Part shown: positions 37,680-50,143 of the stretch, piece by piece
Numbering within the stretch: position 1 is the first letter of the stretch
How the letters are laid out: each line of letters starts with the position of its first letter
Assembly: GCA_965248925.1 (NCBI GenBank)
Contig: CBDFLE010000006.1
Location: 4,256,001-4,320,000, forward strand
DNA: 64,000 bases
DNA from: Candidatus Multivoradales bacterium
Lineage (GTDB): Bacteria > Acidobacteriota > Thermoanaerobaculia > Multivoradales > J023
Reading direction: 5' to 3'
Translations under genes and position numbers: made by a program
Notes under the pieces: generated by a model
Seen by the model: the letters and a program-made list of their open reading frames with translations, nothing else
The model's database searches: none
Told to the model about the DNA's origin: nothing

Positions 37680-38621
37680 CTATCCAGGCACCAGAGACTC
37701 AATCGGCCGAACAAAGGGCATCGCGGGAGGAAAGCTACCCTCTGGATAGCCGACGGCGTGATGACCCGCCCGCCGACGTTCTGTCGCGAGGCGAAAAGCG
37801 GCAACGAACTCAGAATAAGCTCTCTCTAGGCGTCGCCGCTGGCGTCGGTCCCAGGGATGAAAACGAGGTGTCGGCGATCTTTTGGTTTGGTTCGGCCGAT
37901 AGTGAGGGTGAACTCTCCTGGCCCCACGCGGGCCACTTGATTCGGTTCCTCGTTTAGCATGCATGGCCAGGGTTTGCTCTTCGATCTCCTCGACCAGGGA
38001 GCGCACTCGGCTCTGCCGCTCTATAGCCGGAAGGTGTCGCCAGCATGGCAAGGGTTCTAGCAAGACCTCCAGTTCCGTGGCAAATGCTCCCAGGGCAGGA
38101 TCTTCTTTCCGCTGATAAGCGGCGAATTCCCGACTGCGATCGAACCAAGTACCACGCAGCGGCTCGCCGGTCAGCAGCGCGATGACTGAGTTAACGCCGG
38201 GCCAATCGCCAGGAGAGTAGACAACACCTTCTTTAGCACCATGACTCAGCAGGTATCGCAGCCGAGCGATCTGGGCTGCGGGCTCGTCGCTGACCGTGAT
38301 CGAGGAGTACCGCCGTCCCCAGATTTTCTCCCGCCAACCGGTGGCGCGACCGATCTCGTGAGCTATCTTGGAGCCGAAGTAGCCCTGGAAACGGGACAAC
38401 TGTAGGGCGCTGTCGACTTCAAACAAGAGATGGGAATGGTTGCTGAGCACGACCGCGCAGACAATTCTCACTCCGTATCGCCGCTTGGCGACGGCGAGGG
38501 TGCCGACGATCATCTCGTTGAAGGTGCGGCTCGGTCGCAGCAGCATGCGGCCTTGCACGATTCTGCAGGTGCTTTCGACTAGGGTTCCCGGTTCTGCGAT
38601 ATAGCGAAGTTTTCTTGGCAT
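37680..38621 (-). mobile_element. HUH/Y1 transposase, RAYT-like (copy 2, diverged paralog)
   Basis: MPRKLRYIAEPG.., SNHSHLL, WGRRY, RYLLSHG; clearly homologous to 16816..17736. Confidence 0.8.
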
Positions 38622-38782
38622 TGTTGATCTCCTTTCAATGAAAGGAAACGCGAAACGCTCGGCCAATCTTGCTGCCGAGTGAGAGAAAATTAGACGGGTT
38701 TCGCGAGCCGACTAGGCGGATCTCAAGAGCTTCGGATCAAGATTAACCATACAAAGTAGACCTTAACTTGCAATAGGACTGG

Positions 38783-39862: not shown

Positions 39863-41164
39863 TTACGACGGTAGCCTGAGAATCGCTGCACAGCCCCCGT
39901 CGGGTCGATTGCGCAGCTCTAAGGAGCCGCCGTGAGCCTCGGCGATCTGGCGGCAGAGTACCAGTCCTATGCCAGTTCCTTCCGGTTTGGTGGTGAAAAA
40001 AGGCACGAAAAGATTCTCGGTGCTAGACAGGCCAGGGCCTCGGTCAAGCACTTGCAACTGCAAATGGGCACCTTTCAGGCGCCAGACGACCGCCACTTCA
40101 CCTGCTGTTTCTGCTGCTGCTTCGACCGCATTCTTGACCAGGTTGATCAGCAGCTGTTCCAGTTGATCCGGGTCCGCTTGCAGGGCCAGGTCCGGGCCGC
40201 CGTCGAGACGTACTTGGCGGTTGGGTTCGAGTGCCAAGACCCGGTTCACCAAGGAAGCGACGGACGTGCGGCGGAGATGCGGCGAAGGCAATCTGGCAAG
40301 GCGCGAGTAGGCGGCGACGAAGCGATTCAGCGCTTCACTGCGCTGGGCGATGATGCGCAGGCCGCGCTGGGTGTCTTCGCGCCAGTCTGTCGGCAACTGA
40401 GCTCGGCGTAGCAGCGAAGCCAGGGTGGAGGCAGTGGACTTGATCGGTGCGAGGGAGTTGTTGAGTTCGTGGCTGAGTACTCGGATCAGTTTCTGCCAGG
40501 CTTGCCGCTCCTCGTCGCGCAACGCTTTCGACAGATCGGTCAATACCACCAGCTGGTGTGGCAGCCCACCTTCGCGAAAAGCGCCGCGACGGCTCTGCCA
40601 ACGGCCGGAGCCGCCGGCAAAGGAGCGCTCAAAGGTGCGCACCGCCTCGCCGGTCAGGCAGTCGTCGAGCCCGAGTTCTTGAGCGGTGTGATTTAGCAGC
40701 TGCTCGCGGCGGCGAGCCAGCAAGCGCTCACCGGCGCGGTTGACCAACCGTAGCACCTGTCCCTCGTCGAAGGTGAACAGGGCTACGTCGACCTCGCTGA
40801 TCACCCGTTCGAGCAGTTGGGCCGCGTCGACCGCGCGGAAGCGCTGGCGGCGCAGGATGTCGCCGAGATGATTGACCTCGACCATCACCTCGCCGAGCGC
40901 GTCGCGCGGCCCAGGACTGTTGGCGCGGATCGAATAGTCGCCTTCGCGCAGGGCTTCGATCAGGTTGGCCAGGGTTCGCAGTGGTTTGATGGTGCGCTCG
41001 CGGGCGGCCAGCGCGCAGCCCAACCAACAGCTGCCGACCACCAACGCCACGGTCCAGACCAGCCGCGGTGGATAGGAGCCTGACCACAGCAAGTAGGTCG
41101 AGACCACCGCTCCTGGCAAGCCGGCGCCCAAGGCGAGAAGGAAAATGCGTCTTTGGTGGGTCAT
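39863..41164 (-). CDS. Sensor histidine kinase (HAMP/PAS)
   Basis: 2 TM, SHELNNSL H-box, NLVKNA, DRGPG, FFTTK, GIGL. Confidence 0.92.
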   Translation of the reverse strand: MTHQRRIFLLALGAGLPGAVVSTYLLWSGSYPPRLVWTVALVVGSCWLGCALAARERTIKPLRTLANLIEALREGDYSIRANSPGPRDALGEVMVEVNHLGDILRRQRFRAVDAAQLLERVISEVDVALFTFDEGQVLRLVNRAGERLLARRREQLLNHTAQELGLDDCLTGEAVRTFERSFAGGSGRWQSRRGAFREGGLPHQLVVLTDLSKALRDEERQAWQKLIRVLSHELNNSLAPIKSTASTLASLLRRAQLPTDWREDTQRGLRIIAQRSEALNRFVAAYSRLARLPSPHLRRTSVASLVNRVLALEPNRQVRLDGGPDLALQADPDQLEQLLINLVKNAVEAAAETAGEVAVVWRLKGAHLQLQVLDRGPGLSSTENLFVPFFTTKPEGTGIGLVLCRQIAEAHGGSLELRNRPDGGCAAILRLPS

Positions 41165-42576
41165 CGGCTCGCCGACAGGCCGAGCTTGTCTAACCGCCGG
41201 TAAAGCGCGCTGCGGCTCAAGCCGAGAGCATGGGCGGCCTCGGTAACGTTGCCCTCGGTGCGCTCCAGACCGCGTTCGATCAGCACCCGTTCGGCTTCCT
41301 CGAGGGTCATCTCGTCGAGTCGTTTGGTCTCCGACGCAGCGGTCAAGCCGAGATCGGCGGACTCGATCTGGGGGCCGGCGGCCATCAACACCGCTCGCTC
41401 CAGCACATGGCTGAGCTCACGAACATTCCCCGGCCAGGAATGCTCTCGCAGCTGGGCCAAGGCGCCGGCGGCGAGTTGCCGGATAGGTTGGCGGTAGCGT
41501 TGGGCGTGCTGGGCCAGGAAATGCTCCGCCAGCGGCCGCAGGTCGGCACTTCGCTCGCGCAGCGGTGGCAGGTGGATCTGCACCGTCTTGAGGCGGAAAA
41601 GCAAATCGCGCCGGAAGCGGTCAGCCGCCACTTCGGCCTCGATGTCGGCATTGGTGGCGGCGATGATCCGGGCGTCGGAACGCAGCGTCTTGGAGGAGCC
41701 GACGCGCTCGAATTCGCCACTCTCCAACACCCGCAACAATCGGGTCTGCTGCGATGGTCGGATGTTGGCGACCTCGTCGAGAAATAGCGTTCCGCCGCTG
41801 GCCAGCTCGAAGCGACCCACCCGGTCACTCTTGGCGTCGGTGAAGGCGCCGCGAACATGGCCGAAGAGTTCGCTCTCGAACACCGTCTCCGCCAACCCCC
41901 CCAGGTTGACTGTGATCAGCGGACCCGTTCGTCGGCGGGAGAGCTGATGCAGGGCTTTCGCCAGCAAGCTCTTGCCGGTGCCGTTCTCGCCGGTCAGCAG
42001 TACGTTGGCGTCGGTAGGGCCGATACGCTCAAGAAGTTCCAGGACTGGCGCCATGGCGGCCGAGCCGGCGATCAGGTCAGGATGAGGAGCGCCGCGTAGC
42101 AGGCGGTTCTCTGCTTCCAGGCGGACGCCGCGGCGTAGGGTGCGGGCGACCTCGGTCTGGATACGTAGGATGCTGACCAGACGCTCGTTGTCCCACGGTT
42201 TTTCAACCAGGTCGCGAGCGCCACGACGTATTGCCTCGACCGCCAGACCGACGCTGGCCCAGGCGGTCATTACCACCACCGGGAGTTCTTGATCGAGCGC
42301 TTGAATGCGGTCGAGCAAGTGCAGCCCCTCTTCGCCAGAGGTGGTGTCGCGAGTGTAGTTAAGGTCGATCAGCACGACATCGAACTCGACTTCGCCTATG
42401 CGCTCGATCAGGGCGTTGGGAGAGGCCACGGTGACTATGGAGAAGCCTTCGGTCTTGAGCAGCAAGCGGAGCGACTCGCGGATGTCGTCTTGATCGTCGG
42501 CCACCAACACCCGCGGCGCAAGGGTGGATCGTCGACTGCTGCTGGCGGCGCTCTTGGTGGGGTTGGGCTGGTTCAT
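41161..42576 (-). CDS. Sigma54-dependent response regulator (NtrC family)
   Basis: Receiver domain, GENGTGKS, GAFTDA, LFLDEV, WPGNVREL, Fis HTH. Confidence 0.93.
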   Translation of the reverse strand: MNQPNPTKSAASSSRRSTLAPRVLVADDQDDIRESLRLLLKTEGFSIVTVASPNALIERIGEVEFDVVLIDLNYTRDTTSGEEGLHLLDRIQALDQELPVVVMTAWASVGLAVEAIRRGARDLVEKPWDNERLVSILRIQTEVARTLRRGVRLEAENRLLRGAPHPDLIAGSAAMAPVLELLERIGPTDANVLLTGENGTGKSLLAKALHQLSRRRTGPLITVNLGGLAETVFESELFGHVRGAFTDAKSDRVGRFELASGGTLFLDEVANIRPSQQTRLLRVLESGEFERVGSSKTLRSDARIIAATNADIEAEVAADRFRRDLLFRLKTVQIHLPPLRERSADLRPLAEHFLAQHAQRYRQPIRQLAAGALAQLREHSWPGNVRELSHVLERAVLMAAGPQIESADLGLTAASETKRLDEMTLEEAERVLIERGLERTEGNVTEAAHALGLSRSALYRRLDKLGLSASR

Positions 42577-42637
42577 TGCGGGCTCCTGCGGCGTTGTTCG
42601 CCGCGGCCCATTCTACAGCCGTGGAGCGGTGGAGGGA

Positions 42638-42666
42638 GGACCGACCAACCTGGAGCTGGTCGGTCC
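42638..42666 (-). terminator. GC-rich hairpin downstream of ncRNA candidate B (terminator or processing stem)
   Basis: GGACCGACCA-N9-TGGTCGGTCC; no U-tract. Confidence 0.4.
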
Positions 42667-42699
42667 CTATTCTGAGGAAATGTGGAAGCTTTGTTGTAG

Positions 42700-42873
42700 G
42701 CCGGCAGCGGCTGGGCAGCGGTGGAGTCCCGTGAAGGCCATCTCTAAGATGATGCTCCCGGCGGTGCCTTGATCGTCGCTCGTGATGGCTGACTTGATGC
42801 GGTGCGAGGATCGAGGCTTCCTGATGTCGTCTGGCCTTCACGGAACTCAACCGCTACCGGTGCCGCTGACAGA
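42700..42873 (-). ncRNA. Candidate sigma54-dependent structured ncRNA B
   Basis: Arms 42832-42859 and 42713-42740 pair (24 WC + 2 GU of 28), 91-nt loop, consensus sigma54 promoter upstream; paralog of A. Confidence 0.65.
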
Positions 42874-42883
42874 AGTGGTTTAG

Positions 42884-42899
42884 AGCAAGCGCGGTGCCA
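42884..42899 (-). promoter_or_regulatory. Sigma54 (-24/-12) promoter B
   Basis: TGGCAC-CGCGC-TTGCT, exact consensus. Confidence 0.85.
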
Positions 42900-43017
42900 G
42901 GCTCTACGAGCGAGTAGCAGGTTTTTCCAAGGATTCTTGTATTTGCTGTAGCAAAAGGGGTTGTAGCTTTGTCTGATTTTCGGAGAGCAGCCTGACCTGG
43001 TCTGAAGCCGGCTTTTC

Positions 43018-43078
43018 TGTCCGCCAGCGGTCAGTCAGGTGACCCGCAGCGGTCAACCGCTGACCGCTCGCGAGGTCA
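43018..43078. promoter_or_regulatory. Enhancer (UAS) array for promoter B
   Basis: TGTCCG-N4-CGGTCA, TGACCC-N4-CGGTCA, TGACCG-..-GGTCA at 21-22 bp spacing. Confidence 0.65.
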
Positions 43079-43304
43079 AGGCCAGGGCGGTTGCAGAAGG
43101 CAGCGGCTGTGGAGAAAGTAGGTGGCGAGCGGAAAGGGAGAGGCGAGAAGTAGCCGGGGATGGCGACCGAGAGATCGCTAGCGGTAGACTCCGCGAAGAT
43201 CAGTTAATAGAGGATGGACCGGCCGCCTGAGCTGACGTGGTGTGCTGACTTAGAGGATGCTCAAGCGGCGCTGTTGAAAAGATCTTCGCGGAGCCCTGTC
43301 GCCG

Positions 43305-43555
43305 GCAGTGCTCGTTTGACCGGCAGCGACGGAGATCCGTGAAGGTCGTCCCGATGTCGATGTCCGCTCGCGAGGTCGCCGCCTTGGTGCGCTGACGTGA
43401 TGATAGGCGACTCTCGCGATCTACCGTGGTACTCGGTGGTGAGCCGGGTTCGCCGGGCCGCCCTTCGTGGTGCAGGACTGGATGTCTAGGTCGACCCGTG
43501 GCAGTTTGCTGCGAGACCTTCAAGGAACTCCGTCGCTACTGGTTCCGTTCACTCT
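43305..43555 (-). ncRNA. Candidate sigma54-dependent structured ncRNA A
   Basis: Arms 43515-43542 and 43320-43347 pair (24 WC + 1 GU of 28), 167-nt loop, consensus sigma54 promoter upstream. Confidence 0.65.
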
Positions 43556-43565
43556 CCAGAACTAA

Positions 43566-43581
43566 TGCAAGCTAGATGCCA
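43566..43581 (-). promoter_or_regulatory. Sigma54 (-24/-12) promoter A
   Basis: TGGCAT-CTAGC-TTGCA, followed upstream by an AT-rich tract (43610-43670). Confidence 0.85.
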
Positions 43582-43683
43582 GCTTGGCGGACATTGCCAT
43601 GTCAGCCTGATATTTTGCTGTAAACAATTGAAACTAAGACATTTACTGAATTGTTCAGAAAAAAATAACCTGGCTTGTACTGG

Positions 43684-43739
43684 TGACCGTGGGCGGTCGC
43701 TGCTCGCTAGCGGACAGCCTGGGTGACCGTTAGCGGACA
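43684..43739. promoter_or_regulatory. Enhancer (UAS) array for promoter A
   Basis: TGACCG-N4-CGGTCG, TGCTCG-N4-CGGACA, TGACCG-N4-CGGACA. Confidence 0.65.
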
Positions 43740-43778
43740 GCGGCGGGCGGGCGGTGGTTGAACCGGGACTAGGGAAGC

Positions 43779-45695
43779 TCAGCTAGGGCCGGGGAGCAGG
43801 CCGAAGCGTTCCATGCGGCGGCGCAGCTTCTGTCTCGATATGGCGAGCAGCTTAGCTGCTTGCACCTGGTTGCCGTCGCAGCGCCGTAGCGCCTCGCGTA
43901 CCGCGCGTTGTTCGAGATCTTCTAGCTCGAGGGAGTCCAGTGCTAGTAGTTCTGGACGCGGCTCGCCGTCGCTGGCCGCAGGCGGTGAGGCAGACAGGTC
44001 GAGGGCGCGCGCCGCAGAATCTCCCAGGACGGGGCGAGGGGCGTTCTCGAGCACTGCTTTCGACAGCATCGAAGAGTCGATGGCGGCACCGTCGTGACAG
44101 AGATAGACCAGGCGGCGGACCTCGTTTTCGAGTTCGCGGACATTGCCAGGCCAAGGGAAGTCCACCAGCTGGCGCAGAGCACGCACGGTCAGGCCGCGCA
44201 CCCGCTTGCCGAGGGAACGCGAGCAATCGCGCAGAAAATGCTCGACCAACGCTGGGATGTCCTCGGGCCGATCACCGAGGGGCGGAACGTCGAGCACCCA
44301 CCCGGCCAGGCGGTAGTAGAGGTCGGCGCGAAAGCTGCCGGCCTCAATGCGCTTGGCCAGTTCTTGGTTGGTGGCGGCTAGGACCCGCACATCGATCTTG
44401 ATCGGTCGCATGCCGAGGGGGGTGACCTCTTTCTCCTGCAAGGCTCGCAGCAGCTTGGCCTGAAGACCGGCCGACATGTCGCCGATCTCATCGAGAAACA
44501 GGGTGCCGCCGTCGGCTTCTTGGAAGCGGCCACGGCGTTTTCTGACCCCGGAGGCAACCCCTTCGCCGATGCCGAAAAGCTCTGATTCGAGCAGTTCGGC
44601 AGGAATGGCGGCGCAATTGATAGCCACGAAGGGCTGTTGCCGACGGGGCGAAGAGCGGTGCAGAATCTGCGCCAGATACTCCTTGCCGACGCCGGTGTCG
44701 CCGATGATCAGCACCGGCAGGTCGCCGCGGGCCAGGCTCTCCATCAGGCGGTAAATCCGGCGCATCGCCGCCGACTGTCCGAAGACGAATCCCGCCGGCA
44801 CCACCAGGCTCGGAAAACCGGTGTTCACCGTCGGCTGGTGAACTTCGCCGGGCTGTGGCCGGAAGCGGTCCACAAGCCTCACCACCAGGCGTAGCAGGGG
44901 TTCGCTCTCGCTGCGACCGGCGAAGCTGCCCCACAATGCCAAGGCCAGGGGGGCGGCGTCTTGAGGGGTTAGCAAGACCAGGCTGAGGGGCGCTCCGGCG
45001 GTCGGGTTGAGCAATTCGAAAGCGATAGCATCGGCCTTGGTGGTGGCGTCGGCGAAAGCATGCGGCAGCGCCTCTTGCAGGCTTTCCATGGCGTCGTCGT
45101 CGACCTGGCCGGCGGCGGCGAGGACGATAGGCCGCTCCTCGGCCGGTAGCTCTAGCAGACAGGTGCCACGCAGTTGTAACTCGCTGATCAGCAGCCGCAC
45201 AACGGCGCTGAAATGGCCATCCGGACCCTCCGGCATCTCGGTCACCAATGCTTCGACCAGTTGCAGCCAATGTCGGGTGAGGGCGTCGGCTATGCTGCTG
45301 GTGACCAGCGGTGTCTCGCGTCGCAGTACCGCGGAACTCCGGTCGAGGGGTGGGTAGTCAAGAGCGATGGCGAGTTCGGCGTCTTCGCTGTCCAGCTCTT
45401 CAAGAGTCAGCTCGACAGGGCCAAAACGCAGCTGATCGCCCGGTCGGGCGGTAGCCTGCTCGATGCGTCGCTCATTGAGGTAGGTGCCGTTCTTGCTGCC
45501 CAGATCTTCGACCTGCAACTGGTCGATGCCGAGTGTCAGCCGGGCATGCTGCCTGGAGACGCCAGCGGCACTGAGCACGATTTCGTTCGACGGCAAGCTG
45601 CCGACGCCGTTGGTTGAGCCGAGGACGAAAGAATGCTCACTATCTTGCACTAGGCCGCGCAGGCAGTAGCTGATCTGTGAGGTGGTTGTCGCCAT
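43779..45695 (-). CDS. FHA domain sigma54-interacting transcriptional regulator
   Basis: FHA (VSRQHA..DLGSKNGT), AAA+ GDTGVGKE, LFLDEI, RADLYYRL, WPGNVREL, Fis HTH; GVASGV in place of GAFTGA. Confidence 0.9.
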   Translation of the reverse strand: MATTTSQISYCLRGLVQDSEHSFVLGSTNGVGSLPSNEIVLSAAGVSRQHARLTLGIDQLQVEDLGSKNGTYLNERRIEQATARPGDQLRFGPVELTLEELDSEDAELAIALDYPPLDRSSAVLRRETPLVTSSIADALTRHWLQLVEALVTEMPEGPDGHFSAVVRLLISELQLRGTCLLELPAEERPIVLAAAGQVDDDAMESLQEALPHAFADATTKADAIAFELLNPTAGAPLSLVLLTPQDAAPLALALWGSFAGRSESEPLLRLVVRLVDRFRPQPGEVHQPTVNTGFPSLVVPAGFVFGQSAAMRRIYRLMESLARGDLPVLIIGDTGVGKEYLAQILHRSSPRRQQPFVAINCAAIPAELLESELFGIGEGVASGVRKRRGRFQEADGGTLFLDEIGDMSAGLQAKLLRALQEKEVTPLGMRPIKIDVRVLAATNQELAKRIEAGSFRADLYYRLAGWVLDVPPLGDRPEDIPALVEHFLRDCSRSLGKRVRGLTVRALRQLVDFPWPGNVRELENEVRRLVYLCHDGAAIDSSMLSKAVLENAPRPVLGDSAARALDLSASPPAASDGEPRPELLALDSLELEDLEQRAVREALRRCDGNQVQAAKLLAISRQKLRRRMERFGLLPGPS

Positions 45696-46665: not shown

Positions 46666-46790
46666 GGCACTCTCAGGCTGAGCTCCGACGTGGCAGAGGA
46701 GCCCGCTGGACGAGCCCGCTCCAATATCCAGCGGCTACCGATTCTCGCCTGAGATCATCAGCCACGCCGTGTGGCTCTGCTACCGTTCAG
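46666..46790 (+). pseudogene. IS6 family left-end remnant
   Basis: GGCACTCTCAGG IR-like start followed by a frame encoding GYRFSPEIISHAVWLCYR (IS6 transposase N-terminus). Confidence 0.75.
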
Positions 46791-47614
46791 CCGCCGGTTC
46801 TTCTATCATCACGCCTAGCTCATCGAGCAAGGTGCCGGTGGCGCGCTGAAAAGCGATCAGTTGGCGGCGGTGATTGGTTACCGCGACGACCTCGCGCTGG
46901 CGGGCTCCGGCCAGATCTTCTTGGATGCGTAGCAGGGTGAAACTTGACGATAGGCCATTTTCGTAACGTTTTTGCTCGGCTTCCAGGTTGCGGCGGGTCA
47001 GTTCGCTGGCTAGTTGGGCGGAGTCGATCCGCTGCTGCGCGGTGAGCACCGCGCGGGCGGTCCGACGGACGTTGGCGCGGATCGCCCGGTGCAGTTCTTC
47101 TAGTTCTAGCTGTCCGCGCTCGACGGCCAATTCGGCGCGAGCGTGACGCGCTCGCGCCGCACGATTGCGTAGCGGGTACGACAGGGTCAGGCCAACATTC
47201 CAACCGTCAAAGTCGCCATCGAGCACTTGCTGGATGGCCCCGGCATTGCCTTCTTGTTCGAGCACCAGGTCTGGATCGTTGGGGGTGCCGCTGATGCCAC
47301 TAAATTGGTAGGAAGCATCCAGGTCGAGCTGTGGCCAGCGCTGGCGACGCTCGACTCGCTGGTCGAGGTGGCGGTTCTCCAAGGCCAGCTGTTGGCTGAG
47401 TACCTCGGGCCGTAGCTTGAGCGCCTGTGCAATAGCTGATTTGGTGTCAATCTCGACAAAGCTCGCCTTGGGCTCGGAAATTGGTAACAGCTCTGCATCC
47501 CACAGCGGGCCGGGTTCGAAGCTGAGGAGTTCGCGCAGCAGATCCTGTTGATCGTCGACCAGAGCAGCGAATTGGATGGTGTCTTCCTCGCGCTGGGCAA
47601 CTCCGGCCTGACTC

Positions 47615-50143
47615 CAGAACTCCTGACATACCCTTTTTCTCAAATGTCCGGTTGAGCCTCTCCGGAGGTGTTCCGAGGCCCTGGGAAGGCCAGGCTCCGG
47701 GGTGGCGCCTTCTTGATCGCGAACCGCATCCGTAGCTCGGTGCCGGGGAAGTGGGTGGCGGTAGCGTTGAGTTCTTCGCAGACGGCGGCGATCGCCGCCG
47801 TCTTGTGGGGAGAGCTGAGCGGGTCGATGGAAAGGAGCAGCACGGTGTCGGTAACCTCCATATCGCCGCCGGCCGCGAAAGCGCTTTGGATCAGGGTGCG
47901 TCCCTCCTGCTCGGTGCGGCGGTAGTGGGGTGATAGGAGCCGGAGAAGATCACCTTCGGCCTGGTAGGCGACCATCTTGAGAATATCGGTGAGGTGCTTG
48001 CGCTCGACGGACAGCTTGATGACATCCGCTTCGACGACCTCTTGGACGGGGACGCGGACGGGGAGGGTCGCGCGCTGGTTCTCGAGTTCGGTGATCTGCT
48101 CTATCGCTGCCCGGACCCTGGCGGAGATGGCGGCGTTGGCGATCTTGAATCCGCGCATCGTGCGCCGCCGATCCTCGCGGTTTTCAAGAGCAGCGATCCC
48201 GATGTGGGCCCGGAGCTGCTCGAGATGTGCGTGAGCTTTGCGCAGCTCTGCATTGATCTTGCCGCGCTCGGGATTCGGCACATCGCGGGCGGCGTCCGCT
48301 GGCTCGGTGCCATAGTCCACCAGGGCATCGAGTGCGAATTCTTCGCGCAGGTATTTGAAGAAGTTCTCTTGCCTCCAACGATCGAACATGCGGTAGGCGA
48401 CCTCGAGTGTGGAGAGGTCGCGGCGGGAGGTGATGATGGACGTCTGGTGGCCGTTGTCGCAGAGGCGGGTGACCTGGCGCAGGTACAGCCGCTTGCGCTT
48501 CTTCCTCGGGCCATACTCGAGGTAGATACGCTGATCGGCGAGGAGGTACTCGAGCTTCCGACCGTGGATCGTGTCCTTGATCTGCCCGAACTTGCTCAAC
48601 GGCACCGGACGAAAGGGGGCCTTTCGGTATGTGAGGATGTCGAACTTCTTGGCGATGAGCTTCGCAAACAGCTTCGGGCTCCAACCCCCACGGTCGAAGA
48701 CGACGGTGACTCGCCGGTCTCCGAGTAGCTTTCGTACCTCTTCGAGAATGAGGGGAAGCATCGTCGCAAGCCCCTTGTTGGCCTCGGTGGGGACCACGAA
48801 GAGAGGCTCGCTCTCAGCATCGTTGACCCAGTAGTCGGTGGTGGCCGGCATCGCGATCCGCATCCGCGCTACGTGTGTCTTGGGAATCTCTCGGCCACCG
48901 TGGTAGGCGCGCACATGCCCGTCCACGTAGAGGAAGCCCATGGCATGGCCCCTGGTGGCGACCCGGCGCTGAGCGAGGGCGCGACCGAGATCCGCGGCCA
49001 GGCCATGCGCGGCCAGCCGAGCGAGCTTGTTGCGCAAGGTTTTCACTTCCGGCGCTCGGTCGAGCCCGAGAAGCTGACCCAAATGCCGGGGTGAGCGCTC
49101 CTTGAGCCCTTCGGGTCGCTTGACCCGCAACAGTGCCATCAGCAGCAGGGTTACCAGAGTGGTGCGCAGCCCATAGAAGGCCGGCCCGATGCTGCCGTAC
49201 AGCTCCTGCGCGATGGAGAGCACGCCGCTGTCCACCAGGGCGGGAATCGCCAGCAGAGCACCGGCGCCCGGTAGCTGGGTCGCCGCTCCGAAGATCGGCG
49301 CCGCATCATCGAGGAATCCCAGCCTCGCCAGCAGCCGATCGCTGGCGCGATCCGCTGGATCGAGGTCCAGCGAGAGGGGAACCTGATCTTGCTCGGACGC
49401 AGAAGCGGACAGTTTTGGGTCCGCAGCCGCTGGGTCACCGCCACCCTCAGCGTCGAGCGCAAGATCCGCAGTTTTCAGGGGGCCGTCGACCTGCTGCTCA
49501 TCAGAGGCGGACAGTTTTGGGTCCGCACTCTCGAAGGGCATCGTCATCTGCACTACCGACCGCTCTTTCCAGCCCAGGCGCTTGGCGAGCTTGCGAACGG
49601 CCTTCTCATCGATGCCCAGCCGCCGGCCAATCTCGCGATTCGACACACCCTCGGCCTTCCAGCCGTTGACCGCGTCCAGGCGGCCCTGCGCTACCCGAGA
49701 CTGACCCCGGGGAAAACCGCGCGGCCGGCCCAGAGCAGCCAGCCCACCTTCTTCGAAGCGGCGCTGATTCCGGCGCACAGTCCGCACATCACAAGCGAAC
49801 GCAAGGGCCACCTCGCGTTGCTGTGCCCAGCCCAATTCAACGAGACTCACCATCGCGTGGGCCTCGCCTGTCCTGTCGCCGGCAGCGAAGTGAGCGAGCG
49901 GCATGCCGCTGACCACCACCACCCGATAGCCGCCCCTCTGCTGGAGGCGGCAGCGGTCGTTGATCACCACAACCCCATCGGGGACCCCGGCGTGGTCTGG
50001 GAACAGGACGGTGTGCTCGCTCGTCAGTGCCATGCTCGATCATGCCTCGGCACCGAAAAAAGCGGACAGTTTTGGGTCCGCACCACCTCTGAGGGGCGGT
50101 CCTGTGTTTTCAGAGGGTTAGGAGGGGTAGGTCAGGAGGTCTG
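47615..50143 (-). mobile_element. Insertion sequence, 2529 bp (copy 1), family unassigned
   Basis: TIRs CAGA(A/C)CTCCTGAC(A/C)TACCC; flanked by GACTC direct repeats. Confidence 0.92.
47640..50033 (-). CDS. Transposase, 797 aa (N-terminal HTHs + DDE: YVDGH, VFDRGG, RWRQENFFK)
   Basis: Fills the IS; IS4-superfamily-like catalytic motifs. Confidence 0.88.
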   Translation of the reverse strand: MALTSEHTVLFPDHAGVPDGVVVINDRCRLQQRGGYRVVVVSGMPLAHFAAGDRTGEAHAMVSLVELGWAQQREVALAFACDVRTVRRNQRRFEEGGLAALGRPRGFPRGQSRVAQGRLDAVNGWKAEGVSNREIGRRLGIDEKAVRKLAKRLGWKERSVVQMTMPFESADPKLSASDEQQVDGPLKTADLALDAEGGGDPAAADPKLSASASEQDQVPLSLDLDPADRASDRLLARLGFLDDAAPIFGAATQLPGAGALLAIPALVDSGVLSIAQELYGSIGPAFYGLRTTLVTLLLMALLRVKRPEGLKERSPRHLGQLLGLDRAPEVKTLRNKLARLAAHGLAADLGRALAQRRVATRGHAMGFLYVDGHVRAYHGGREIPKTHVARMRIAMPATTDYWVNDAESEPLFVVPTEANKGLATMLPLILEEVRKLLGDRRVTVVFDRGGWSPKLFAKLIAKKFDILTYRKAPFRPVPLSKFGQIKDTIHGRKLEYLLADQRIYLEYGPRKKRKRLYLRQVTRLCDNGHQTSIITSRRDLSTLEVAYRMFDRWRQENFFKYLREEFALDALVDYGTEPADAARDVPNPERGKINAELRKAHAHLEQLRAHIGIAALENREDRRRTMRGFKIANAAISARVRAAIEQITELENQRATLPVRVPVQEVVEADVIKLSVERKHLTDILKMVAYQAEGDLLRLLSPHYRRTEQEGRTLIQSAFAAGGDMEVTDTVLLLSIDPLSSPHKTAAIAAVCEELNATATHFPGTELRMRFAIKKAPPRSLAFPGPRNTSGEAQPDI

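Follow-up and report, generated by a model that had tools for sequence, protein, structure and literature searches.

A candidate family of structured RNAs with sigma-54 promoters, between two activator genes of a Multivoradales bacterium

The question raised by this locus is what is encoded in the 1.2 kb intergenic gap that separates two sigma-54 activator genes of Candidatus Multivoradales bacterium, a member of the Thermoanaerobaculia (Acidobacteriota). The gap lies in a window of 64,000 nucleotides (nt), positions 4,256,001 to 4,320,000 of contig CBDFLE010000006.1 (assembly GCA_965248925.1), from a genome of 7.98 Mb in 6 contigs with 62% GC and 96.9% completeness. The whole locus is on the minus strand, in the order FHA activator gene, gap, regulator gene and kinase gene. 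A first-pass annotation of the window had described two tandem minus-strand modules in the gap, each with upstream sites, a promoter and a closing stem. It had read them as an unrecognised family of structured RNA, driven by sigma-54 and a neighbouring activator. Both modules, referred to here as units A and B, are present where it placed them, and sequence comparison across related genomes supports the reading. The units represent a new RNA family, and a small RNA (sRNA) with a sigma-54 promoter beside an activator gene is already a known type of system.

The Thermoanaerobaculia are known mostly from assembled genomes and, to our knowledge, the regulatory RNAs of the Acidobacteriota are almost unknown. 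A search of the literature for sigma-54 small RNAs, and for such RNAs in Thermoanaerobaculia or Acidobacteriota, found nothing on this group.

The RNA family and its distribution

The window was scanned against the 4227 families of Rfam 15, which include Qrr, GlmY, GlmZ, 6S, Acido-1 and Acido-Lenti-1, with the gathering score as the cut-off. None of these families reached its gathering score anywhere in the 64 kb. Between positions 42000 and 44500 there were five matches with E-values of 0.46 to 7.2, far below gathering, and no bacterial sRNA was matched over the units. The RNA had been called unrecognised before this check was run, and it remains without a family match. The features of the locus are the following, in window coordinates.

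43779 to 45695, minus strand: FHA-domain sigma-54 activator gene (638 aa; FHA, sigma-54 AAA+ and HTH_8 by Pfam), directly 5′ of unit A; candidate cognate activator
43684 to 43739, no strand assigned: upstream site cluster of unit A, three TGWCCG-N4-CGGWCA palindromes
43566 to 43581, minus strand: predicted sigma-54 promoter of unit A, TGGCATCTAGCTTGCA, with −24 GG and −12 GC
43306 to 43555, minus strand: predicted sRNA unit A, a long hairpin with arms 43515-43542 and 43320-43347 and an enlarged apical domain, without a U-tract
43186 to 43296, minus strand: partial third unit A2, a 16-bp stem GGGCUCCGCGAAGAUC/GAUCUUCGCGGAGUCU around a family-like apical domain, without a promoter of its own
43018 to 43078, no strand assigned: upstream site cluster of unit B, with one exact site, one with 1 mismatch and one variant with a 6-nt spacer
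42884 to 42899, minus strand: predicted sigma-54 promoter of unit B, TGGCACCGCGCTTGCT
42698 to 42873, minus strand: predicted sRNA unit B, a long hairpin with arms 42832-42859 and 42713-42740 and, in the fold, a 24-nt G-poor apical loop
42638 to 42667, minus strand: GC-rich hairpin GGGACCGACCA...UGGUCGGUCC 3′ of unit B, without a U-tract; may terminate the B transcript or form its 3′ end; not called by the terminator scan
42610 to 42615, minus strand: TAGAAT, a putative −10-like box before the regulator gene, counterpart of TAGACT and TATGCT boxes in relatives
41161 to 42576, minus strand: NtrC-type response regulator and sigma-54 activator gene (471 aa; REC, AAA+ and HTH_8 by Pfam)
39863 to 41164, minus strand: histidine kinase gene (433 aa; HisKA and HATPase_c by Pfam), whose start overlaps the stop of the regulator gene; syntenic in relatives

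A DNA similarity search with the whole gap against 40 relatives gave only chance-level matches of 25-50 nt (E = 4e-4 or weaker). As the family is too diverged for BLAST, homologs were sought through the orthologous regulator gene. Orthologs of this gene at 60-68% identity occur in 18 of the 23 other genomes of the taxonomic family, plus two partial ones at contig ends. At seven orthologous loci, the region 5′ of the regulator gene contains a sigma-54 promoter followed by a hairpin that opens with GAGAGCGGGCUCCG.AGCGACGGGG... and closes with ...CCCCGUCGCU.CGGAGCC, and then by a U-tract. The seven loci were aligned with the two window units (alignment A4), and the covariance model built from them, R1, matched 27 places in 15 of the 24 genomes of the taxonomic family, at 1-4 copies each. 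The search with a covariance model that had been proposed for the units thus recovered homologs in related genomes.

The distribution was followed further with an exact pattern of the promoter and the 5′ end of the RNA, which was run through GTDB at one genome per species (185,579 species). Fifty loci carried the pattern, and the model confirmed 29 of them, 25 in records titled Acidobacteriota or Thermoanaerobaculia and 4 in records titled ‘bacterium’. Every record titled as another phylum is among the 21 loci left unconfirmed. The same pattern was present at 13 loci in metagenome contigs, 5 of which were confirmed by the model. When model R2 was applied with stricter filters to 150 genomes from other families of the class, none had the RNA, and the regulator loci of RNA-less genera gave no model match better than E = 0.08. 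As far as searched, the RNA family appears to be confined to five genera of one Thermoanaerobaculia family.

The predicted RNA is 121-176 nt in length, or 250 nt in unit A. Folded individually, every copy forms one rod of roughly 40 pairs from its first to its last nucleotide. A GAGAG sequence precedes the basal stem, GGGCUCCG/CGGAGCY, in which GAGAGCGGGCUCCG is unchanged in 29 of 31 copies; the window units diverge at the base of the rod and contain GAGAGUGAACGGAACC and CUUCUGUCAGCGGCACC instead. Next are a middle stem, for example AGCGACGGGG/CCCCGUCGCU or GUGAUGGGG/..CAUCAC, and an inner stem, UUCCGCGAAGRCC/GGYCUUCACGGAA, with a conserved C.A mismatch. The apical domain consists of a GC helix and a large loop. 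The largest hairpin loops contain 10% G, compared with 28% overall, and often present UUCCUC, CUCC or AGUCAG. A run of at least four U follows the 3′ arm in 24 of the 29 copies from relatives; in the remaining five, 4-9 U lie within 13 nt.

Covariation was assessed on a structure-blind MAFFT alignment (A6) of 31 copies, the 29 from relatives and the 2 from the window. Alignments by MAFFT of the two window RNAs only had misaligned the arms and were dropped. Owing to gap placement, RNAalifold recovered only 11 pairs from the 31-sequence alignment, and a structure of 32 pairs was therefore written by hand from the individual folds. On A6 this structure pairs 81.6% of cells, in comparison to 38.7-44.0% in controls whose 3′ partners were slid by 1-3 columns. 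Compensatory change on both sides was recorded in 22 of the 32 stem pairs. There are 94 doubly changed cells against a shuffle mean of 37.7, and none of 500 shuffles attains the covariation score. The shuffle count overstates the significance because the sequences are related, whereas the slid control is free of this. Covariation among homologs, on which the first-pass annotation had staked its proposal, is present throughout the family.

Within the window, units A and B align at 71% column identity. Their folds have energies of -163.1 kcal/mol (A, z = -5.28) and -136.1 kcal/mol (B, z = -6.22), a stability equalled by 0 of 100 shuffles, and both minimum-free-energy folds contain the long closing stems. 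The arms and the loop lengths (167 nt in A, 91 nt in B) are as previously given. The compensatory changes reported between A and B are real and number three, namely A-U to G-C, C-G to U-A and U-A to C-G, and the stem of unit B has one U.C mismatch that had gone unrecorded. Model R1 scores unit A at 89.7 bits and unit B at 117.3 bits.

The strand cannot be read from folding alone, because stable folds were also obtained for the opposite strand (z = -4.18 and -4.53). The earlier argument that G-U wobbles favour the minus strand is weakened by these values, and by the 73 G.U versus 56 A.C cells of the family. Instead, the minus strand was assigned from the promoters, from the U-tracts in relatives and from the scores of model R2, which are 67.4 bits (B) and 55.6 bits (A) in the sense direction versus 28.2 and 26.3 bits in antisense.

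The partial unit A2 was missed in the first reading. It has a local R2 match of 26.8 bits (E = 6.5e-6) in sense versus 8.7 bits in antisense. It retains the basal stem, the inner stem and a loop resembling those of the family, with the middle stem deleted on both sides. A2 is probably co-transcribed with unit A.

Promoters, upstream sites and the candidate activator

The consensus TGGCAY-N5-TTGCW is present in both units, as had been noted, with exact matches at 43581-43566 and 42899-42884. Across the 7.98 Mb genome there are 32 exact matches to this pattern, compared with 8 for the reversed-pattern control, and 2 of the 32 fall inside the gap. A promoter of the form YGGCAY-N5-NTGCD stands before all 31 aligned copies and ends 9-12 nt before the RNA, as its start is placed by the model. 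In the window units the RNA begins twelve nt past the −12 GC and its ends pair as a stem of 25-28 bp. The arm had been described as lying exactly 25 nt after the −12 C in both units. By the arm coordinates given with that description, the distance is 25 nt in A and 26 nt in B; a conserved GUAGCG starts 28 nt past the −12 C in both. The genome encodes rpoN (Sigma54_DBD domain, 214 bits, G000:C5:808454). The −24 GG/−12 GC spacing, the encoded RpoN and activators and the upstream sites are together those of a sigma-54 promoter, and we infer from them that each copy is transcribed by the sigma-54 RNA polymerase.

Three palindromic sites had been reported for each unit. All three stand in unit A, at 43724-43739 (exact), 43701-43716 (2 mismatches) and 43684-43699 (1 mismatch). 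In unit B this holds for two, at 43018-43033 (exact) and 43040-43055 (1 mismatch), and the third, at 43061-43078, is a variant with a 6-nt spacer. Across the 7.98 Mb, TGWCCG-N4-CGGWCA occurs at a background of 4 exact sites and 101 with one mismatch. Sites are clustered (two or more within 120 nt, at most 1 mismatch each) at only two places in the genome, the promoters of units A and B.

The sites are also a feature of the family. With up to 2 mismatches allowed, at least one site lies upstream of 30 of the 31 copies and at least two upstream of 27, while 23 copies have an exact site. The sites sit about 105-290 nt upstream in those 30 copies, and the locus of the remaining copy offers only 77 nt of upstream sequence. 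A doublet, defined as one exact and one relaxed site within 31 nt, is found in 14 of 15 RNA-bearing genomes and in 3 of 9 RNA-less ones, where the second sites are poor; the reversed doublet has 0 matches in all 24 genomes of the taxonomic family. Most doublets fall at known copies, and the remainder yielded one more copy, L123 (46.4 bits). Two doublets in relatives, L121 and L122, have no model match, and L122 has no clear promoter either.

The DNA between the upstream sites and the promoter was searched for the IHF consensus WATCARNNNNTTR, with no match in any of the 31 copies; the region is merely AT-richer. The AT-rich tract TATTT(T)GCTGTA, noted earlier as part of the module, is common to the paralogs A and B. 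It is not conserved across the family.

Also of note are the loci L121 and L125, where the palindrome occurs without the RNA. At L121 (G021:C54:11000-14000, about 1504-1770) the doublet is followed by a sigma-54-like promoter, TGGCCCGCAGCTTGCA, and then by a different predicted transcript of about 140 nt with a strong terminator, which may be a second small RNA type within the same regulon. At L125 (G008:C5:120300-123300, about 1426-1516), in an RNA-less genome, an exact palindrome lies about 75 nt before a consensus sigma-54 promoter. This promoter is followed by an apparent ribosome-binding site and ATG, about 4.5 kb from a regulator paralog of 47% identity, and the target of the site is probably a protein gene.

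The proximity of two activator genes raises the question of which protein binds these sites. Orthologs of the FHA activator, at 52-56% identity, lie upstream of the RNA in syntenic loci. When an ortholog is required to score above the best paralog within the window genome itself, the FHA activator is present in 12 of 14 RNA-carrying related genomes versus 1 of 9 RNA-less ones. The corresponding figures for the regulator are 13 of 14 and 7 of 9. The site doublets likewise track the presence of the RNA and not that of the regulator. The co-distribution of FHA protein and RNA favours the former as the cognate activator. The recognition helices of the two HTH domains differ and do not discriminate. 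Both activators may act on the RNA promoters, by analogy with LuxO and SypG on qrr1 (PMC10162802).

A more specific proposal, which is plausible but rather doubtful, is that the RNA family is the dedicated output of the FHA enhancer-binding protein. A signal from a Ser/Thr kinase, sensed by the FHA domain, would pass through sigma-54 to a burst of sibling sRNAs and to essentially no other output. The founder locus would add a His-Asp input through the NtrC-type regulator of the other flank, and with it a two-activator logic gate. If true, no sigma-54 sRNA regulon would have been described before in Acidobacteriota, and none would have been linked before to phospho-threonine signalling.

Mode of action and alternative explanations

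The copies are probably sibling sigma-54 sRNAs that form one regulon under one enhancer-binding protein, and their action is most likely in trans, by pairing of the apical loop. An enhancer-binding protein on two or three TGWCCG-N4-CGGWCA sites would switch on the sigma-54 promoter. The transcript would fold into the rod, in which the invariant basal stem (5′ GAGAGCGGGCUCCG) would double as an intrinsic terminator in relatives. The two covarying stems would then lead to an apical domain exposing a G-poor, C/A/U-rich loop. In the window genome the sibling RNAs would be the only detectable clustered targets of the activator. The loop is expected to pair with mRNAs, probably at their purine-rich ribosome-binding regions, and a protein or RNase III may also make use of the conserved basal stem. 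An hfq gene is present in the genome. The 6S RNA is encoded separately, outside the window, at G000:C6:3803765-3803956 (55.4 bits, above the Rfam cut-off).

Several observations weigh against this account. The terminator scan found none after units A and B, both of which lack a U-tract. The regulator gene lies 62 nt beyond the GC-rich hairpin 3′ of unit B, and transcription could read through from unit B into it. The apical loops differ among copies, with only short motifs such as GUCAG recurring, and the loops of minimum-free-energy folds are themselves predictions. The basal stem is conserved beyond the need for pairing, which may point to binding by a protein or to processing, in addition to simple base-pairing. 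With regard to the activator, the comparison at genus level is five against five, so that a single gain or loss could explain the co-distribution. Finally, all four runs listed for the organism, itself known only from assembled genomes, are DNA contigs from one study, and none is recorded as RNA.

The closeness of unit B to the regulator gene could also mean that the RNA is a cis-acting leader or attenuator of the regulator/kinase operon, with sigma-54 autoregulation and the hairpin as a regulated terminator. The window order of FHA activator, RNA, regulator and kinase is retained by nine of the 29 copies in relatives, which, like unit B, share the strand of the regulator gene and are found directly upstream of it; in the window there is also no U-tract between unit B and that gene. 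However, the other 20 copies are dispersed elsewhere, and 11 of the 17 that could be evaluated are convergent with the next gene (crude open reading frame (ORF) calls by length and by GC content at the third codon position). At L017 and L019, in two relatives where dispersed copies are present, the FHA activator gene adjoins that of the regulator and no RNA intervenes. This arrangement and the dispersed, convergent copies imply that the RNA is not a leader. In addition, the syntenic copies end in runs of 3-8 U, in relatives a −10-like box has been kept before the regulator gene, 7-9 nt from the ATG, and unit A precedes another promoter module instead of a gene. A leader function is therefore considered improbable. 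In relatives the copies have what defines a free-standing sRNA gene, that is, their own promoter, an intrinsic terminator and no coding content, while the window copies lack the U-run.

A protein-binding decoy or sponge, as GlmY is with RapZ and 6S RNA with RNA polymerase, or an RNase III substrate that releases an apical hairpin, is unlikely, although somewhat better founded. It would account for the rod of roughly 40 pairs and for a basal sequence that stays unchanged in nearly every copy while the neighbouring stems covary freely. Two tandem homologous copies also recall the GlmY/GlmZ pair (PMC3045617). Set against this, CsrA was not found in the 96.9%-complete genome, the canonical 6S RNA is encoded elsewhere, and neither a 6S nor a GlmY/GlmZ family of Rfam matches the locus. 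Near the dispersed copies, no gene stands out as a candidate partner. Among the 20 neighbouring proteins scanned, 13 have unrelated Pfam families and 7 have none, with no common theme; they include a protease, a pyrroloquinoline quinone (PQQ) propeller, a monooxygenase, a methyltransferase, a lipid A acyltransferase, an O-antigen ligase and a secretion ATPase. The G-poor exposed loops are better suited to a base-pairing seed. Still further from the evidence is an element acting at the DNA level, such as a miniature inverted-repeat transposable element (MITE) or an invertible or recombination site, or else the mRNA of a small protein. The former would explain 28-nt inverted repeats around a variable insert and a plus strand that folds about as well as the minus strand; the latter draws on ORFs of 107 and 163 codons that overlap the units. 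Yet a search of the 7.98 Mb genome at up to 2 mismatches found each arm at units A and B and nowhere else, which also disposes of the MITE origin raised in the first-pass annotation, and relatives have just 1-4 copies. A promoter and upstream sites stand at fixed spacing before every copy, compensatory changes preserve the pairing, and the U-tract is on one strand only. As had been stated earlier, no reading frame is conserved: 13 of the 31 copies lack an AUG, and the ORFs of the gap show no coding periodicity, with GC contents of 0.61/0.61/0.63 at the three codon positions versus 0.71-0.73/0.46/0.75-0.78 in the flanking genes. Both forms of this explanation are very hard to sustain.

The −10-like boxes of the regulator gene in relatives are TAGACT, TATGCT, TAGAAT and TATAGT, recorded at L013, L014, L023, L025, L040, L011, L018, L020, L021, L027 and L028. 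Their position suggests that a separate promoter produces leaderless regulator mRNAs; the box of the window is 35 nt upstream of the regulator gene.

If the copies are sibling sRNAs as proposed, the design of one activator with a few sibling sRNAs, known in Vibrio and in enterobacteria, would extend to a distant phylum, which suggests an ancient or repeatedly invented solution. The signature of sites, promoter, covarying fold and terminator is complete and self-consistent, and the family is thus ready for Rfam and for reporter assays. The RNA would also provide a tractable handle on the targets of otherwise anonymous signalling proteins, the FHA activator and the kinase/regulator pair.

Known small RNA systems and other features of the window

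Further small RNAs that depend on sigma-54 are CrcZ and Pxr. GlmY folds as three stem-loops, whereas each copy here is a single rod. The Qrr RNAs are about 100 nt in length with several stem-loops, in contrast to a rod of about 135-250 nt. The Rfam models of GlmY, GlmZ and Qrr give no match at the locus. The likeness to 6S RNA lies in a length of about 150-190 nt and in 5′ and 3′ ends that pair into a long rod. The present RNAs differ in being multi-copy, in their predicted activator-dependent promoter and in a branched or looped apex in place of the central bubble, and the 6S model has no Rfam match at the locus.

Among known systems the nearest are GlmY/GlmZ with GlrR, Qrr with LuxO and NrsZ with NtrC. 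GlmY and GlmZ of Enterobacteriaceae are two homologous sRNAs with sigma-54 promoters under GlrK/GlrR, also named QseE/QseF (PMC3045617). Similar to the present family, their genes have three palindromic TGTC...GACA sites more than 100 bp upstream, and a regulator with REC, sigma-54 AAA+ and HTH domains is encoded just 3′ of the sRNA gene and independently transcribed (PMC3045617). The GlmY/GlmZ site is TGTC-N10-GACA; in TGWCCG-N4-CGGWCA there are 8 nt between TGTC and GACA. Other differences are the absence of an IHF consensus from the copies studied here, the second, FHA-type activator gene on the other flank, and the phylum, Acidobacteriota.

In Vibrio harveyi there are five sibling sRNAs, Qrr1-5. 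The likeness to the Qrr/LuxO system lies in a set of sibling sRNAs under the control of sigma-54 and a single enhancer-binding protein, as predicted here. In V. fischeri, two enhancer-binding proteins, LuxO and SypG, activate Qrr1 in an OR gate (PMC10162802), which offers a precedent for an sRNA promoter flanked by two activator genes. No seed block is common to all copies here, unlike in Qrr, and only short loop motifs are shared.

NrsZ of Pseudomonas, under NtrB/C and RpoN, is encoded in the intergenic region between ntrC and PA5126 and has a conserved loop motif that kisses an mRNA leader (PMC4253122). It shares with the present family the place beside an NtrC-type activator gene, the dependence on sigma-54, predicted here, and the repeated stem-loop modules that vary in number between species (PMC4253122). 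In the present family each full module has its own promoter and sites, and only A2 looks co-transcribed. The modules are about 150 nt here compared with about 40-60 nt in NrsZ, to which they have no sequence relation.

Elsewhere in the window, two features related to transposases were observed. At 46780-50033 on the minus strand, a 287-aa outer-membrane efflux ORF, which has a single OEP repeat, shares 4 nt with the end of a 797-aa Transposase_29 gene, and the efflux gene may have been truncated by insertion. At 37680-38666, also on the minus strand, a 328-aa ORF has a weak match to an IS200-like Y1 transposase (E = 2.7e-6). It lies just 3′ of aminotransferase and RidA genes, which follow the histidine kinase gene.

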